Notes under the pieces: model-generated
The model's database searches: none
Seen by the model: only the letters and a program-made list of their open reading frames with translations
Told to the model about the DNA's origin: nothing
Position numbers and translations under genes: made by a program
In this document: one piece after another, positions 2,827-16,982 of the stretch
Numbering within the stretch: position 1 is the first letter of the stretch
How the letters are laid out: each line of letters begins with the position of its first letter
Assembly (NCBI GenBank): GCA_964387845.1
Contig: CAYLXA010000002.1
Location: 211,584 to 275,583, forward strand
Direction of reading: 5' to 3'
Source: an uncultured bacterium
GTDB lineage: Bacteria > Omnitrophota > Omnitrophia > Omnitrophales > Abzuiibacteriaceae
Length of the DNA stretch: 64,000 bases

Positions 2827-3741
2827 TTAAAAGTGGCAGATTTTTTTAAATTCTTGATACCGGTTCTCAATTTCGTCTATGGCAAGAGATCTGAGGCGCT
2901 CAAGGCCGAATTGCTCAACCGTAAACGAAGCCACCACACTTCCGTAAGCAACCGCACGCTTCAAAGTCTCAAAATTGAGAACATTTTGCTTTGCCAAATA
3001 TCCCACCATCCCGCCCGCAAAGGTGTCTCCTGCGCCGGTAGGATCAAATACTTCTTCCAACGGAAATGCCGGCAATGCAAAAAAATTGCTTTCGTAGAAC
3101 AAAAGCGCGCCATGCTCGCCTTTTTTAATGACGACAATCGACGGGCCGAACTCCTGAATCATGCGCCCGGCCTTGATGAGACTTGGTTGGCCGGTCAATT
3201 GACGAGCTTCCCCGTCATTGACCACAATCATATCCACGCGCTTGAGGACTTTGAGCAATTCGTTTTTCTTGCTCGCAATCCAAAAATTCATCGTATCGCA
3301 GGCAACCAGCTTGCACTTCGGACGCTTGACCTGATTGAGGACTTCCTGCTGGAGAATCGGATCAATGTTTGCTAAAAATAAGAAATCAGGTTCGACTCCG
3401 TGGTTAAGCTTTGGTTTGAAATCAAGCAAAACGTTCAGTTGCGTATCAAGCGTAATCGCCGTGTTTAGATCCGATTCATATTTCCCTTTCCAACGAAATG
3501 TTTTTCCGGCGGATAAAACTTCAAGGTGATCTAACCCGATTTTACGTTCTTCTAAAATTTTGCGGTATTCGACAGGAAAATCCGCACCCACCACCGCTAC
3601 CAGTTCGGCGGGGACAAAAAAACTGGATGCGTATGAAAAATAAGAAGCCGAGCCGCCGAACACTTCTTGCTTGGCACCGAACGGTGTTTCAACCGAGTCA
3701 ATCGCGACCGTGCCAATGACCATGAGAGGATACTGACTCAT
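2827..3741 (-). CDS. PfkB-family carbohydrate/heptose-type kinase
   Basis: It carries the ribokinase-family signature DPTGAGDTFAGG and an N-terminal GG...SA..F motif, over 304 aa. Confidence 0.65.
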   Translation of the reverse strand: MSQYPLMVIGTVAIDSVETPFGAKQEVFGGSASYFSYASSFFVPAELVAVVGADFPVEYRKILEERKIGLDHLEVLSAGKTFRWKGKYESDLNTAITLDTQLNVLLDFKPKLNHGVEPDFLFLANIDPILQQEVLNQVKRPKCKLVACDTMNFWIASKKNELLKVLKRVDMIVVNDGEARQLTGQPSLIKAGRMIQEFGPSIVVIKKGEHGALLFYESNFFALPAFPLEEVFDPTGAGDTFAGGMVGYLAKQNVLNFETLKRAVAYGSVVASFTVEQFGLERLRSLAIDEIENRYQEFKKICHF

Positions 3742-3742
3742 T

Positions 3743-4375
3743 TTAGGCCATCCTTTGTTTTAATTGCTGAGCAGCCGCTTTCGGGTTTGCATCATTAAAA
3801 ATAGCCCGAACGACCGCAATGCGTTTGGCGCCTGCGCCAACAACTTGTTTTGCATTTAACCGATTGATGCCGCCGATACAGACAAACGGAATTTTAACTC
3901 TTTGACTGACTGTGTGAATTGAACGAAGTCCGATTGGTTGATAGTCCGGCTTTGTCGGGGTACCGAAAATCGGCCCAAAGCCGATGTAATCCGCACCGTT
4001 TTTTTCGGCTCTAACCGCTTGCTCGACGCTATGAGTCGAAATGCCGATTATTTTTTCTTTTCCCGTAATCTTACGCGCCGCCTGAATCGGCAAATCATCC
4101 TGTCCCAAATGCACACCGTCAGCACCTGCCGCCATTGCCAAGTCAATGCGGTCATTGATGATAAAAAGCTTTTTTTGCTTCGCCGTCATCTTCTGAATTT
4201 TAACCGCAAGTCTATACAATTCATTATCCAGTAATGATTTGGAGCGAAGCTGAATAATATCAACACCGCCGCAAAGCGCGTCATTGATTTTTTGCAGAAT
4301 CGCGGAACCGGATTCTTTCAGATCAGTGATTGCGTAAAGCTGAAAATTTTTTAATAATTCCTTTTTCCAGTTCAT
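3743..4375 (-). CDS. thiE: thiamine-phosphate synthase
   Basis: ThiE motifs are present (LYAITD, VHLGQDDLP, GADYIGFGPIFGTPTKPD). The start was moved to the internal Met (MNWKKELL) from the ORF-track extension. Confidence 0.8.
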   Translation of the reverse strand: MNWKKELLKNFQLYAITDLKESGSAILQKINDALCGGVDIIQLRSKSLLDNELYRLAVKIQKMTAKQKKLFIINDRIDLAMAAGADGVHLGQDDLPIQAARKITGKEKIIGISTHSVEQAVRAEKNGADYIGFGPIFGTPTKPDYQPIGLRSIHTVSQRVKIPFVCIGGINRLNAKQVVGAGAKRIAVVRAIFNDANPKAAAQQLKQRMA

Positions 4376-10558: not shown

Positions 10559-10611
10559 AAAAAAAAGAGGTTCACGGCATCCGCGGAATCGGATATTACC
10601 GTGAACCTCTT
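10559..10611 (-). terminator. Rho-independent terminator after the STAS-PilZ gene
   Basis: A perfect 13-bp stem (aagaggttcacgg / ccgtgaacctctt) is followed on the minus strand by a T8 run, immediately 3' of the CDS that ends at 10683. Confidence 0.6.
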
Positions 10612-10682: not shown

Positions 10683-11417
10683 TCAAACTTGTTTGGAATC
10701 GAGAAATTGAATACCCAGCCCCACCTGGCGCTTCGACAACTCGATTCGCTTAATACAACCTTGAATCTTGACCTCCTCCGGAAAGCTTTCATTGGCCGGA
10801 ACCAAGATAGTTACCTTGTTGCTCTCCAGGTCTGACATCTGTGAAACCTGAAGCGAACTGTCCAAATCCAGATATTCAGCGAACAAGCCGCCTTGGCTGA
10901 TGTTGGTCGCAATCGCTTTAGAGTGAACCTTCTTGCCATCCGCGGTTTCGAATTCGATTTCGATCGGAATCGCCACCCGAATACGTTTACTCCGCCTGCG
11001 CTCCAGGCCGTATTTGTCATGCAGCAAGCCGAGTTCCTTTGGAACACCGGTATCCTTGTCCTTTTCGAACAAGAACGAACCCACTGAATCGGCAATTTCA
11101 GCTTCCGAAATACAGAGTTTGATATTTTTCGGCAGGTAGGTCCCCTTGAAAAACTGGGTGAACCGGTCGTTGGTGCAGAACACCAAACTTTTCTGTGGCC
11201 GGATCAGGCTCGCAATAAGCCGCCTAACGATCAGCTCGTCAAGCTCCTGGACCTTCTGCAGGTTCAGGATCACCCGCTTCAGTTTCTTTTTTTGGATGAC
11301 GTGATCAATTTTATCGATCACCTCCACCGACTGCTCGCCGGTCAGAGTTCCGTACAAGTCGAAGACCTGAACTCTTCCGATCTGTCTTTGCTCAACTTTT
11401 GGCATTAATGTTTTCAT
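10683..11417 (-). CDS. STAS (SpoIIAA-like) domain - PilZ domain fusion protein
   Basis: The N-terminus matches the anti-sigma-antagonist pattern (VFDLYGTLTGEQ...RVILNLQKVQELDELIVRRL). The C-terminus carries PilZ motifs (RRSKRIR ... NISQGGLFAEY). Confidence 0.65.
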   Translation of the reverse strand: MKTLMPKVEQRQIGRVQVFDLYGTLTGEQSVEVIDKIDHVIQKKKLKRVILNLQKVQELDELIVRRLIASLIRPQKSLVFCTNDRFTQFFKGTYLPKNIKLCISEAEIADSVGSFLFEKDKDTGVPKELGLLHDKYGLERRRSKRIRVAIPIEIEFETADGKKVHSKAIATNISQGGLFAEYLDLDSSLQVSQMSDLESNKVTILVPANESFPEEVKIQGCIKRIELSKRQVGLGIQFLDSKQV

Positions 11418-11627
11418 AACACACCTCTCTCTTTCATCTAGAATTAAAACGCTCGATGCCGCCGTATGCGTTCCAACGCTTGAAACTTGGCATGCATCTT
11501 TTCTCCAATATACCCCGTCAAAATCTCATAACCATACACATGCAGCGGAACCGCAAAGCGCCCGCTTTTCTTATGTTTCACTTTTAGCAGCTTATTAAAT
11601 AACCGTTTCATTGAGAGCCCCTTTACT

Positions 11628-12443
11628 TTACTTATCCAGATCCGTCAAAAGCTGTCTGATTTTCTTTTTCGCTTCCGCCGCAATTCCGTAAAATTCGATT
11701 CCAATTCCGACTTGATCGCCGTCTGCCTTGACGTGAATTACCTTGCCCTCGGCTTCAATCGGCATGTCGTCCGGCCCCGCGATTTCCAGTTTCAACAAAC
11801 TCAATTCATAAGGATTGATAATCGCTTTTGACTTCTCCGCGTCTTCCAAGTCGATGTACTCCGCAAACAGACCGCCTTCGCTCATATTTGTCACAATCGC
11901 CCGAAACTGAATCATCTTCCCCTTTTTATCCTTGCAGTAAAAAAACATCGGTAACGCGGTTTTGATTCTGCGAAAAAGCCTTTTGTCCGTCTTGGCATCC
12001 GTTTGCGCCATTTCCCTTCCAAATAGTTTCACAAGCTCCTCTTCTCCGTTAATCACATTCATACTTCGCTTTACCGGATACGCTTTAATCATGCTCATGA
12101 CCTGTTCACTGCCGCGGATCATTCCGCTTCGTTCCCTTTTGATCAAATTCTCCACCACTGCTTTCGCGCCAAGCGAATCCATCGTTTCGAGCGGCCTTAA
12201 ATTAAGAACCAGCGCGGATGCCAGATCGTTTTCGGCCATTGAATCTATTTCTTGCTGAACGCGAACTGCCCAAGGCCCCACCAAATCACCTTTAAGGTCC
12301 ACCAAGTCCAACTTGCCGATTCTCCTTTTTACCACTTGTGGAAATTTAGCTGGCTTCATGCGCTCATACTCCTCGTTGGGTGTCAATAGTACAACAAGCG
12401 TGCCAACTTTATTTGATTTCTTCAGTATCTTTAAAGGATTCAA
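11628..12443 (-). CDS. STAS-like domain - PilZ domain fusion protein (paralog)
   Basis: It has the same architecture as its neighbour: a STAS-like N-terminus (LVDLKGDLVG...LVLNLRPLETMDSLGAKAV) and a PilZ C-terminus (RLFRRIK ... NMSEGGLFAEY). Confidence 0.65.
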   Translation of the reverse strand: MNPLKILKKSNKVGTLVVLLTPNEEYERMKPAKFPQVVKRRIGKLDLVDLKGDLVGPWAVRVQQEIDSMAENDLASALVLNLRPLETMDSLGAKAVVENLIKRERSGMIRGSEQVMSMIKAYPVKRSMNVINGEEELVKLFGREMAQTDAKTDKRLFRRIKTALPMFFYCKDKKGKMIQFRAIVTNMSEGGLFAEYIDLEDAEKSKAIINPYELSLLKLEIAGPDDMPIEAEGKVIHVKADGDQVGIGIEFYGIAAEAKKKIRQLLTDLDK

Positions 12444-12540
12444 AACAAAGGGGTTACAACTTTCTTAAAAATCGGTAGTTTGAAACTAACAATTTAAACT
12501 GTAACAACTTTTTGACAGTTGTCACAAAAAAGAGACAGGA

Positions 12541-13572
12541 TTATGCGAGGTCGATTTGATAGAGTTTCAGTTTGCGGTTTAAATCCTGGCGGGAAATACC
12601 CAGCGCTTTTGCGGCTTGTGTTTGATTGCCTTTTGTGCGAAGGAGCGCTTCTTCGATAACCGTTTTTTCAAAACTGGATACCAGATCGCTTTTCCTTTTC
12701 TTGAGAGATTGATCCTCCGAAATGGAATCGCCGCCCTTTTTCTTCATTGCGGCTTCAATCAAATGGCGCGACAAATCTTTGGCTTCGACTTTCGGCCCCG
12801 AAGCCATGATACAGGCTTTCTCAAGTTCATTCTCAAGTTCTCGGATATTCCCGGGCCAATCATAAGATTGCAAAGCCTTTAAAACTTCCGGCTCCAGCGC
12901 TTTGACGGGTTGGCTATTTTTAGCCGATATCTTTTGGACGATGTGCGTGACCAGTTGCGGGATGTCTTCGCGGCGATCGCGCAAGGCGGGTAAATTGATA
13001 TGCATAACGTTTAATCGATAAAACAAGTCATTTCGAAATTTTCCGGAATCCACCATTTTCTGTAAATCTTGGTTGGTGGCTGCAATAATTCTGACATCCA
13101 CCTGGATCGGTTTTGTGCCGCCGATTTTAAAAAAAACACCTTCCTGCAGAACCCGCAATAATTTCACCTGAAGCGCCGGGCTCATGTCACCGACTTCATC
13201 CAAGAAAAAAGTCCCCTTGTCCGCAATCTCGAAAAGTCCTTTCTTTTCGGCAAGCGCACCAGTGAATGACCCCCGCATGTGGCCAAAAAGCTCGCTTTCC
13301 AAAAGCGCATCCGAGAATGCGGAACAATTGATGATCACAAATTCGTTGTTTTTGCGTTTACTGTGATAATGGATGGCGCGCGCCACCAATTCCTTCCCCG
13401 TTCCGCTTTCGCCCTGAATCAAAACCGTGACGTCATAGGCCGCAATCCGCTGGAGCAAATCACGGACATACTGAATCGACGCGCTCCCGCCCACCAGCCC
13501 GAAATCAGGGCCTGCCGACGCCGCCTTCGGGTTGATGCTACTTTTGGGATTTGTTTTTGCTTTTGAGGTCAT
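12541..13572 (-). CDS. sigma-54-dependent transcriptional activator lacking an N-terminal regulatory domain (AAA+ plus Fis-type HTH)
   Basis: AAA+ motifs are present (GESGTGKE, ESELFGH, a GSFTGA variant of GAFTGA). The C-terminal HTH reads QAAKALGISRQDLNRKL. At 343 aa it has no receiver or GAF domain. Confidence 0.8.
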   Translation of the reverse strand: MTSKAKTNPKSSINPKAASAGPDFGLVGGSASIQYVRDLLQRIAAYDVTVLIQGESGTGKELVARAIHYHSKRKNNEFVIINCSAFSDALLESELFGHMRGSFTGALAEKKGLFEIADKGTFFLDEVGDMSPALQVKLLRVLQEGVFFKIGGTKPIQVDVRIIAATNQDLQKMVDSGKFRNDLFYRLNVMHINLPALRDRREDIPQLVTHIVQKISAKNSQPVKALEPEVLKALQSYDWPGNIRELENELEKACIMASGPKVEAKDLSRHLIEAAMKKKGGDSISEDQSLKKRKSDLVSSFEKTVIEEALLRTKGNQTQAAKALGISRQDLNRKLKLYQIDLA

Positions 13573-14913: not shown

Positions 14914-15681
14914 CTACCAGTGCAACGCATCGCGGACAGGCCGTGCGAAGCGTCTTGAAAGCGGAATCCGTGTCTGTTTTGAATCGTTCAGGTCAATCGA
15001 GAAATTGCCGCTGGATTGCGGTGAAATCCGGGCAATAAAATCAATGTTCACGACATGCGCCTTGTGAACCTGGAAAAATTTCTTGGGGTCCAATTTCGTC
15101 AGCAATTCTTTCAAGGTCGACTTCACCAAATACATTTGCTGATCCGTTTGATGCGCATAAATATCCGCCAGGTCCGCATGAAAATAAGTGACTTTGCTGA
15201 CATCAAAGAAAATACGCTCTTTACTCTCCGGTTTATAACCGCAAATCCGGTCCAGATGATTGCCTTTGCTTGCGGCCCGGTTTAAAACCTGAAATTGATC
15301 CTTCAAGACTTCCGTTTGGCCCAGCAATGTTTTGGCCCGGTCCATGGCACGTAAAATCCGGTCCTTTTCGTAGGGCTTGAGCACATAATCAACTGCGCTG
15401 AGCTCAAATGCCTTGACGGCATATTCGTCGTAGGCGGTTGCAAAAATCACGACCGGCGGCTTTTCCATTTTTCCGACTTCCGTCGCCACATCAAGCCCGG
15501 TCATCTTCGGCATCCGGATATCCAGGAAAACAATCTGGGGGGACAACTCGCGAATCTTGTCGAGCGCTTCCTTTCCGTCTGACGCCTCACCCACAACGCG
15601 AACATCGTGGCAAGCGCCCAATAAACGCTTCAACCCTTCGCGGGCCAGCGGTTCGTCATCAACGATTAATGTGGTCGGCAT
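14914..15681 (-). CDS. LytR/AlgR-family response regulator (REC + LytTR)
   Basis: A receiver domain (LIVDDEPLAREGL...FLDIRMPKMTGL) is followed by a C-terminal LytTR DNA-binding domain. Confidence 0.85.
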   Translation of the reverse strand: MPTTLIVDDEPLAREGLKRLLGACHDVRVVGEASDGKEALDKIRELSPQIVFLDIRMPKMTGLDVATEVGKMEKPPVVIFATAYDEYAVKAFELSAVDYVLKPYEKDRILRAMDRAKTLLGQTEVLKDQFQVLNRAASKGNHLDRICGYKPESKERIFFDVSKVTYFHADLADIYAHQTDQQMYLVKSTLKELLTKLDPKKFFQVHKAHVVNIDFIARISPQSSGNFSIDLNDSKQTRIPLSRRFARPVRDALHW

Positions 15682-15686
15682 AATGA

Positions 15687-16982
15687 TTACTCCTCTTCCT
15701 CTGATGTTAAAGGTATTTTGAATTGTACTGCAGTTCCCTGTCCGATTGCACTAGAAATTTTTAACTCCGAATCACGCCCAAAATGATACCGCAGCCTCTC
15801 ATTAATGTTCTGAAGGCCGACTCCGGCACCTTCGCCTTCGTGGCTGACTTGCCCTTTCCGGACTTCCTCAAGCCTCTTTTCGTCCATTCCCACGCCGTGA
15901 TCTTTCACTAATATTTCGACATATTTTCCGTTTTCCCAAGCGGAAATAGAAAGAAGCGCGCCCTCTGATATGGGCGCAATCCCATGCTTAATCGCATTTT
16001 CCACAATAGGCTGAATAATCAAAACCGGCAGCTTGGCATTGGCGCCGCGCGGGCCCAGCTTGATGCTTTTCTCAATTTTCAGCCGGTTTTGATACCGGGC
16101 TTGTTCGATTGCTAAATACGCGTCGATATGATTAAGCTCTTCCTCAACCGATACCCAATCGCCTTCCTGTTTCACAATCCGGCGGAAAAAGTTTGAGAGT
16201 TTGATCACAAGTTCACGGGCATGCTCCGCTTTCTCGCGGCTGCAAATCGCTGCAATGGTGTTTAAAGCGTTAAACAAAAAATGCGGGTTGATTTGCGCCT
16301 GCAAAAATTTAAGCTTCATCTGCGGAAGCAGCCGTTCCAAATTTTTCCGGCGCTCATCCTGCACTAAGCCGATGGCCACCGCCATAAAAATATACGCGCT
16401 CATGGCTTCTAATACGACCAGTGAAAACAAAATACCGAGAAGCGCAGCCGCGTGAGTCGCTTGCCAGAGCGGCCAATATAAAATAATGCCCTGCAAAATC
16501 CCGGCAAACCCTGCAGCAAAAAGCGCGCTCCATCTTTTCGGTGTTTCGTTTCGCCGTAGATCGGACAACGCGCCCCCCAAAAGCCCTGCGCTTATTAAAA
16601 TCAGAACATGATGTAAATGAAATTCGCCGAGCATTGCTCGAAATAGAATGCCGACGGCAGCACAAATAACGCCTCCGCGAAAACCTGCTAACAAACCGCA
16701 GGCAACGGTAAACACGAGATAAAGGTCCAGAAAATACCAATCGGACTCGCCGTAGCGCAAATACCCCATTCCAGAGCCGACGATTCCCAAAATTGAAAAA
16801 GCGATGATTAGAAAATAATTATTTCGTGCATTTTGGGATTCGGTGGAATCTGTAGAAAAAAGCGAGCGAAACCATGGAAATCGAACCAGCAAGTAAGAGG
16901 AAAGCACCACGAAAGCGAATTTCTGAAAAATATCGCCGTAAATTTCAAGCCAGGCAATCCGGATCTGTTCTGCGTAAGGCAT
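15687..16982 (-). CDS. LytS/YehU-like sensor histidine kinase
   Basis: A polytopic N-terminus is followed by the His_kinase internal region (LQAQINPHFLFNALNTI) and an HATPase_c domain. Confidence 0.8.
   Translation of the reverse strand: MPYAEQIRIAWLEIYGDIFQKFAFVVLSSYLLVRFPWFRSLFSTDSTESQNARNNYFLIIAFSILGIVGSGMGYLRYGESDWYFLDLYLVFTVACGLLAGFRGGVICAAVGILFRAMLGEFHLHHVLILISAGLLGGALSDLRRNETPKRWSALFAAGFAGILQGIILYWPLWQATHAAALLGILFSLVVLEAMSAYIFMAVAIGLVQDERRKNLERLLPQMKLKFLQAQINPHFLFNALNTIAAICSREKAEHARELVIKLSNFFRRIVKQEGDWVSVEEELNHIDAYLAIEQARYQNRLKIEKSIKLGPRGANAKLPVLIIQPIVENAIKHGIAPISEGALLSISAWENGKYVEILVKDHGVGMDEKRLEEVRKGQVSHEGEGAGVGLQNINERLRYHFGRDSELKISSAIGQGTAVQFKIPLTSEEEE

Follow-up and report, generated by a model that had tools for sequence, protein, structure and literature searches.

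Sequence and synteny evidence for a sensor-less sigma-54 activator predicted to drive a STAS-PilZ operon in Omnitrophota

In which direction does control run between a sigma-54 activator that lacks a sensory domain and the two signalling proteins encoded beside it? The question is raised by a 64-kb stretch of DNA, here called the window (contig CAYLXA010000002.1, positions 211,584 to 275,583), from an uncultured member of the Omnitrophota, a phylum of uncultured, very small and possibly host-dependent cells in which signalling is, to our knowledge, almost uncharted. Here the gene for a receiver-less enhancer-binding protein (EBP) precedes two paralogous genes, parA (upstream) and parB (downstream), each of which joins an N-terminal STAS domain to a C-terminal PilZ domain. 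Both kinds of module, the STAS partner switch and the PilZ receptor, rank among the commonest in bacterial signalling, and a fusion of the two would couple levels of cyclic di-GMP (c-di-GMP) directly to partner-switch outputs. The original prediction proposed that the STAS-PilZ proteins control the EBP in trans; the DNA supports an arrow in the opposite direction, with the STAS-PilZ operon apparently a target of the EBP. With moderate confidence, we propose that the EBP, made together with rarA, activates parA, a small open reading frame (ORF) and parB through a conserved palindrome, and that the products are c-di-GMP receptors signalling through their STAS domains. The transcriptional part, which we rate higher than the statement as a whole, is its best-supported link and most likely holds. 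Coordinates below are those of the window and L-numbers denote comparison loci.

All genes across 7-19 kb of the window lie on the minus strand, in the order pheT, a LytS/LytTR two-component pair, rarA (MgsA), EBP, parA, a 55-aa ORF, parB, a terminator, an LPG_synthase_TM membrane protein gene, accB and accC. The three ORFs originally described, for the EBP and the two paralogs, are present where they had been placed, and the proposal that they form one unit could be kept in part. The start of the EBP gene overlaps the stop of rarA by 35 nt and 181 bp of regulatory DNA separates its end from parA; the region is therefore better divided into a rarA-EBP unit followed by a promoter and a parA-small ORF-parB-terminator unit. 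About 75 comparison loci (38 from species-representative genomes, 29 from metagenomes and 8 obtained through exact-protein look-ups) were examined; in those with an EBP, the orthologue overlaps or abuts its upstream gene, with 100-400 bp between it and parA where parA follows. The terminator reported after parB is real (z = -5.0), with a stem GAGGUUCACGG...CCGUGAACCUC followed by U8; the 111-nt region folds at -37 kcal/mol and none of 200 shuffled versions folds as well. Of the two paralog lengths given earlier, 244 aa is correct for parB, whereas the 271-aa ORF assigned to parA starts at a TTG inside the promoter region and its extra 28 codons are promoter DNA. We place the parA start at ATG 12359, for a length of 243 aa, because the database protein (P0121, also 243 aa) and all homologues begin there. 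The paralogs had also been described as directly adjacent; they are neighbours, with the 55-aa ORF lying between them at a distance of 16 nt from parA and 26 nt from parB.

The EBP-parA gap carries regulatory evidence for the transcriptional link. One or two copies of a palindrome of the family TGTAACA-N4-TGTTACA stand near the stop codon of the EBP gene in all EBP-parA intergenic regions examined (10/10 initially, with L046, L047, L049, L051, L052, L055, L056 and L057 added later). When up to three mismatches were allowed, the palindrome matched 16 times in 2.6 kb of EBP-parA regions versus 6 times in the remaining 476 kb of locus sequence, and it was absent from loci without an EBP and from the DNA downstream of EBPs without parA. 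In the window, the candidate operator has the core TGTCAAAAAGTTGTTACA (12500-12517) with flanks TGTGACAAC and an extra half-site, GTTGTAAC, at 12453-12460. The palindrome is matched once in the whole 64 kb, where 1.05 matches are expected by chance, and the promoter pattern TGGCAC-N5-TTGCW (at most one mismatch) is likewise matched once, against an expectation of 0.45. A scan flagged the palindrome as a possible terminator of the EBP gene, a candidate that we rejected given its AT-rich stem, the lack of a U-tract and the fact that the sequence itself is kept palindromic across diverged loci.

The -24 box of a putative sigma-54 promoter follows the centre of the operator at about 105 bp in the window, and at about 90-200 bp across loci. 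This promoter lies 30 nt before the start codon of parA, a ribosome-binding site (GAGGAG) standing in between, and has a canonical -24 element and a -12 element that reads GT, not GC. Loose scoring of GG-N10-GC over all loci proved too noisy, and promoters were taken from direct reading of the EBP-parA intergenic regions. A box resembling TGGCAY-N5-TTGTA was found at a conserved place in 11 loci, in which the EBP has GAFTGA or GSFTGA where that part of the protein is present. TTGTA itself follows the spacer in the window (TGGCAC-GCTTG-TTGTA), L047 (TGGCAT-GATAG-TTGTA), L051 (TGGCAC-GTTAA-TTGTA), L042 (TGGCAT-TAGTA-TTGTA) and L038 (TGGCAT-GGCAC-TTGTA), with variants in L046 (TGGCAC-GATCA-TTGTC), L055 (TGGCAT-ATTAC-TTGTT), L001 (TGGCAT-ATCAA-TTGAT), L049 (TGGCAC-GCTAT-TTGGA), L041 (TGGCAC-GAAAG-TTTCA) and L056 (TGGCAC-GACAA-ATGCA).

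Promoter and activator also change together. In a subclade of seven loci (L003, L004, L005, L039, L040, L052 and L057, of which L039 and L052 may come from one genome), the threonine of the GAFTGA loop of the EBP is gone (GSFAGA, GSFVGA or GSFVGS) and the DE of Walker B has become DH, NH or KD. At the same distance from the parA start codon, the TGGCAY box is replaced by a sigma-70-type promoter, TTGAAW-N17-TAnnnT, while both the palindrome and the helix-turn-helix (HTH) domain of the EBP are retained. Joint loss of the sigma-54 contact, the ATPase residues and the sigma-54-type promoter is what would be expected if the EBP controls this promoter, and the subclade is a compact example of a regulator and a promoter changing together. 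A relic of TGGCAC stands further upstream in L005.

Several other features were noted in this regulatory DNA. The 5' untranslated region of parA, below the TGGCAY box, contains a conserved two-hairpin structure in L038 (575-690), L046 (5268-5372) and L055 (3395-3500), in which six base pairs are kept through two-sided changes among the three sequences; it belongs to no Rfam family and the window does not have it. An insertion of about 125 bp that carries terminal inverted repeats (CCCAACCACCTGTTTT...AAAACAGGTGGTGGG) and a duplication of ATGATCCCA sits at the parA start in L003 (~4160-4290) and resembles a miniature inverted-repeat transposable element. Between pheT and rarA, a 6S RNA gene was found in L042 (3105-3290), L041 (1497-1674) and L014 (2861-2985), with no 6S match in the window, and in L042 a perfect palindrome of the EBP type (3045-3062) lies just upstream of the TTGCTT-N17-TATAAT promoter that precedes the 6S RNA. 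A weaker palindrome occurs before rarA in L043.

The EBP itself was originally described as a 343-aa activator with AAA+ and HTH modules only and a GSFTGA loop, and this description was borne out by Pfam and by the sequence. Matches to Sigma54_activat (1.2e-70), AAA_lid_14 and HTH_8 (9e-15, residues 300-337) were obtained; the AAA+ domain begins at residue 27, and Pfam gives no domain N-terminal of it. Walker A (GESGTGKE), Walker B (FFLDE) and the GSFTGA loop are all present, the HTH is of the Fis type, and the database holds a 100% identical copy (P0297). Identical database proteins exist for parA (P0121) and parB (P0001) as well, all three on a single contig. All NCBIfam equivalog scores fall under their cut-offs (285 vs 443.55 bits for TIGR02974, pspF; 230 vs 529 bits for NF008622), so the protein is not a PspF equivalog, and pspA is not nearby among the genes of the window. 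We also considered direct, FleQ-like binding of c-di-GMP by the EBP, which may still occur: the arginine of the LFRS motif is absent on sequence inspection, and other FleQ residues were not discriminating. Genes with MshEN domains, another type of c-di-GMP receptor, lie between rarA and the EBP, packed closely against the latter, in L041 (3067-4776), L044 (1877-3998) and L046 (1846-3987), comprising a stand-alone MshEN protein and an MshEN-T2SSE ATPase, with the ATPase only in L041.

Across the sampled Omnitrophota, the backbone pheT-rarA-X-LPG_synthase_TM-accB-accC is kept, and X includes a parB orthologue in almost every locus that reaches far enough, with or without an EBP; in about 60 loci lacking an EBP, parB is found in that position too. 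The exceptions are L042, in which a gene of 1365 aa follows the small ORF, and three loci found from the EBP side. In a neighbour-joining tree, parB forms a clade apart from parA, and the parA clade comprises two types. Type 1, to which the window belongs, is preceded by an EBP in every locus that holds the upstream flank, amounting to about 17 distinct loci at 38-65% identity (L001, L003-5, L038-42, L046, L047, L049, L051, L052/53 and L055-57). Type 2, at 22-33% identity, stands directly after rarA and has no EBP. About 45 short EBPs exist at 52-66% identity, and of four orthologues sampled from the EBP side, only L046 had the full arrangement, with the other three (L043-L045) following rarA without a nearby STAS-PilZ gene. 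The original prediction had named co-occurrence in a conserved neighbourhood among its checks. This was found for type-1 parA with the EBP and not for parB, which is unlinked, nor for three of the four sampled EBPs: type-1 parA comes with an EBP, an EBP need not come with parA, and parB occurs irrespective of either.

For the products of the operon, the two-domain architecture called in the original prediction was recovered in both paralogs by Pfam and by structure prediction. Pfam scores were marginal for parB (STAS 23.6 bits with a cut-off of 22.6; PilZ 23.9 bits with a cut-off of 22.5), and for parA the PilZ match reached 35.4 bits and the STAS match 20.1 bits, below the cut-off. NCBIfam scores for the STAS part were far under cut-off. 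Among 27 parA relatives, PilZ was matched in all and STAS in 26, with a best E-value of 1.4e-7. AlphaFold (AF2) models built from alignments of 26-27 sequences had a mean predicted local distance difference test score (pLDDT) of 82.6 for parB and 86.3 for parA, and Foldseek placed the N-terminal domains of both with SpoIIAA, RsbV, RsfB and RsbS (template-modelling score, TM, 0.77-0.81; root-mean-square deviation 2.1-2.5 Å). The parA model was closest to SpoIIAA (TM 0.81) and RsbV (0.80), with its barrel matching the YcgR PilZ domain (E = 3e-7); the parB model matched SpoIIAA (TM 0.77) and the PilZ domains of MotI, BcsA and MrkH. These matches across relatives, together with confident models that superpose on SpoIIAA-type folds, settle the STAS assignment.

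Structural neighbours of the C-terminal domains are c-di-GMP-bound PilZ domains (YcgR, MotI, BcsA, Alg44, MapZ and MrkH), and the expected ligand motifs, RxxxR and D/NxSxGG, are intact in both proteins: RRSKR...NISQGG in parB (the former within RRRSKR) and RLFRR...NMSEGG in parA. RxxxR is retained in every aligned family member and lies in a low-confidence inter-domain linker of both models, and [D/N]xSxxG is retained across aligned members except for an Ala at the Ser position in the parB orthologues of L024 and L025. These motifs and folds argue that parA and parB bind c-di-GMP. Of the refuting outcomes named with the original prediction, neither an N-domain of another fold nor disabled PilZ motifs was observed. 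The two proteins share 25% identity over their full length (E = 4e-27) and differ at the site that is phosphorylated in SpoIIAA. A profile alignment puts the serine of the parA DSLG motif on SpoIIAA Ser58, at the start of helix 2, and this position is Ser or Thr, within D-S/T-L-G, in all 11 type-1 parA sequences; in parB it is Glu in the window and Glu, Pro, Ala, Tyr or Gln in orthologues, never Ser or Thr. parA is therefore a possible kinase substrate, which could be phosphorylated at the DSLG serine, and parB is not. No RsbW/SpoIIAB-type (HATPase_c_2) kinase or PP2C phosphatase occurs among the annotated genes of the loci inspected. The family is small: a search of 1.84 billion representatives gave 252 matches at E <= 1e-3, and those beyond about 1e-6 are for the most part STAS or PilZ proteins of a single domain. 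It is confined to Omnitrophota as far as taxon names are available. Database entries call its members 'PilZ domain-containing', 'STAS domain-containing', 'anti-anti-sigma regulatory factor' or hypothetical.

Between the paralogs, the small ORF encodes a motif LTGYIxxxMHxxF/LxxL (LTGYIxxxMHxxLRRL) followed by an R/K-rich tail, and has no Pfam match. A hidden Markov model (HMM) built from 6 copies recovered the gene in 14 of 39 loci, in each of which its end coincides or overlaps with the start of parB. L047 has it too, and L042 has it after parA without parB, for a count of at least 16 loci. Since the window and its close relative L047 differ by 23 synonymous and 7 non-synonymous codon changes, we regard it as a real gene; its translation is usually coupled to that of parB.

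The locus is connected with c-di-GMP by further evidence that does not depend on the PilZ assignment. Directly downstream of parA, c-di-GMP-I riboswitches (RF01051) were detected in L038 (1446-1542; 50.3 bits) and L046 (6118-6226; 49.8 bits), above the gathering score of 35, and L055 (4247-4367) has a match to the GGC variant at 44.8 bits, under its gathering score of 59. Loci of this lineage (L038, L046 and L055) have the order parA, aptamer, an ORF of about 78 aa, the small ORF and parB. Rfam gave no riboswitch in the locus region of the window or anywhere else in its 64 kb.

Taken together, these data suggest the following sequence of events. The sensor-less EBP, co-expressed with rarA, would bind the palindrome just downstream of its own gene and, from about 105 bp upstream, activate the sigma-54-type promoter for parA, the 55-aa gene and parB, with transcription running up to the terminator. 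In the products, the PilZ barrel and the RxxxR linker would bind c-di-GMP, probably re-positioning the STAS domain, which may in turn relay the signal through protein-protein contact. parB, kept throughout the sampled Omnitrophota, would represent the ancestral form and work independently of the EBP; parA would be an old duplicate, carrying a SpoIIAA-type phosphorylatable serine, that was turned into the EBP's local target gene. Several points weigh against this reading. The canonical GC of the -12 element is missing in 9 of the 11 promoters, mostly as GT, no rpoN gene is visible in the 64-kb window, the palindrome could be bound by another regulator, and read-through from rarA-EBP into parA may occur. 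Three EBP orthologues lack an adjacent parA, so the EBP must act on further targets or serve a purpose unrelated to parA. Finally, the covariation of promoter and EBP counts as a single event, because the degenerate subclade is monophyletic in the tree, and is suggestive rather than statistical.

One challenge to the transcriptional link is that the adjacency is merely inherited, the palindrome belonging to another factor, the TGGCAY box being no functional promoter and the EBP acting on distant targets. In many genomes the EBP does follow rarA whether or not parA is there, the -12 element departs from the canonical form, and one site per 64 kb carries no significance by itself given the chance expectations above; yet palindrome and box are kept in place where parA is only 38-65% identical and the surrounding intergenic sequence has diverged, the palindrome strictly co-occurs with the EBP-parA pair, and the promoter type shifts along with the catalytic and sigma-54-contact residues of the EBP, all of which leave us thinking this account very improbable. 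A different output has also to be weighed, namely a classical partner switch unrelated to the EBP protein, in which c-di-GMP binding and/or serine phosphorylation would let the STAS domain bind a SpoIIAB/RsbW-like anti-sigma kinase encoded elsewhere, or a different partner. The consequence would be release of an alternative sigma factor or an effect on a nearby membrane or lipid process (LPG_synthase_TM, accBC), and the EBP would only set the expression of the extra copy. The nearest structures are all partner-switch STAS proteins, the parA serine aligns with SpoIIAA Ser58, and in most loci reaching far enough downstream parB has a fixed place ahead of LPG_synthase_TM and accB-accC. Against these stand the lack of a candidate kinase or phosphatase among the annotated genes of inspected loci and of a phosphorylatable residue in parB, and gene order beside housekeeping genes need not mean a common function; we consider such a switch quite unlikely.

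The remaining alternative retains the direction of the original prediction and is compatible with EBP-driven expression of parA. Here the STAS-PilZ proteins, mainly parA, would form the input module of the EBP, with parA acting as a c-di-GMP-gated and possibly phosphorylation-gated STAS adaptor on the AAA+ ring that blocks or permits ATPase activity and oligomerisation, in the manner of PspA on PspF or HrpV on HrpS; as the EBP would also drive parA, the loop would be closed. Such feedback would suit an EBP without a sensory domain, and it accords with the pairing of the EBP with the window's type of parA wherever the upstream flank is present, down to 38% identity, with strict retention of D-S/T-L-G in this parA type alone, and with persistence of the pair where the EBP has lost its ATPase and sigma-54 contact residues. 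There is also precedent, since PspF activates the operon encoding its own inhibitor, PspA. Nevertheless, three of four EBP orthologues sampled from the EBP side have no adjacent parA, parB and type-2 parA occur without an adjacent EBP, and a regulator-target relation fully accounts for the adjacency. Known STAS partners, moreover, are kinases, anti-sigma factors, transporters and ABC ATPases rather than bacterial EBPs, and we regard both trans control and the closed loop as unlikely.

The preferred reading, in which the EBP drives the operon, draws on parts of known kinds; their combination is new and lies in a little-studied phylum. As in the PspF-PspA (Escherichia coli phage shock) and HrpS-HrpV (Pseudomonas syringae) systems, the activator consists of AAA+ and HTH only, and a nearby sigma-54 promoter with an upstream activator site, here predicted, drives the neighbouring gene. 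In those systems the product of a neighbouring or regulon gene binds back to the EBP and inhibits it. The resemblance to PspF extends to the partial NCBIfam match, whereas the target here is STAS-PilZ and not PspA, the -12 element is GT and not GC, and feedback binding is only a possibility. The STAS domains share the fold of SpoIIAA, RsbV and RsbS and, in parA, the DSxG serine, and depart from these in being fused to a C-terminal PilZ domain, in their marginal Pfam scores, in the non-Ser/Thr site of parB and in having no kinase or phosphatase among annotated neighbours. With YcgR, MotI/DgrA, PlzA, MrkH and MapZ the two proteins have in common the PilZ beta-barrel, an RxxxR in a flexible linker and a [D/N]xSxxG on the barrel. 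In known two-domain PilZ receptors, c-di-GMP clamps the N-terminal domain against the barrel; the N-terminal partner here is STAS rather than YcgR-N/PilZN. FleQ and VpsR likewise link c-di-GMP signalling to an NtrC-family regulator, but there the nucleotide binds the regulator itself, and in the present locus no c-di-GMP receptor can be recognised other than the separate PilZ proteins. Some EBP relatives, such as TyrR and HupR, act at sigma-70 promoters, and they are paralleled by the degenerate subclade with its sigma-70-like target promoter.

Literature phrase searches found no paper on a STAS-PilZ fusion, and a PilZ domain review preprint made no mention of STAS. The locus offers testable parts in its candidate operator sequence and in a putative sigma-54 promoter with an unusual -12 element. 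Should feedback on the EBP prove true, it would be a new control mode for sensor-less sigma-54 activators. A PilZ protein would then, for the first time, relay c-di-GMP control to a sigma-54 activator in trans, and a STAS partner switch would for the first time target a bacterial EBP instead of an anti-sigma factor.

Table 1. Positions of the EBP-STAS-PilZ locus features in the 64-kb window
Feature	Position	Strand	Basis
EBP, receiver-less sigma-54 enhancer-binding protein, 343 aa	12541..13572	-	Pfam, orthologue alignment
Candidate EBP operator (upstream activator site)	12499..12527	-	Conserved palindrome, family TGTAACA-N4-TGTTACA
Putative sigma-54-type promoter TGGCAC-GCTTG-TTGTA	12390..12405	-	Pattern scan and conservation in relatives
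parA, STAS-PilZ, 243 aa, ATG 12359	11628..12359	-	Pfam, AlphaFold/Foldseek, P0121
Small ORF, 55 aa	11444..11611	-	HMM across loci, codon differences; no known family
parB, STAS-PilZ, 244 aa	10683..11417	-	Pfam, AlphaFold/Foldseek, synteny
Intrinsic terminator after parB	10559..10611	-	Folding z = -5.0, U8

The flanks of the locus vary among relatives. In most Omnitrophota loci pheT directly precedes rarA; the window (14914-16982, minus strand) and its closest relatives (L001, L047, L049 and L050) are alone in having genes for a LytS-type histidine kinase and a LytTR response regulator inserted between the two. On the other side, the gap between parB and LPG_synthase_TM is 143 bp in the window and contains the terminator only. 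A DUF1844 gene occupies this position in L039 (7612-7980) and L040 (4430-4873), two loci that also have Trm112p and DHquinase_II genes ahead of accB; the window has none of the three. In most other loci the gap measures 0.5-1 kb, which may leave room for a DUF1844-like gene.

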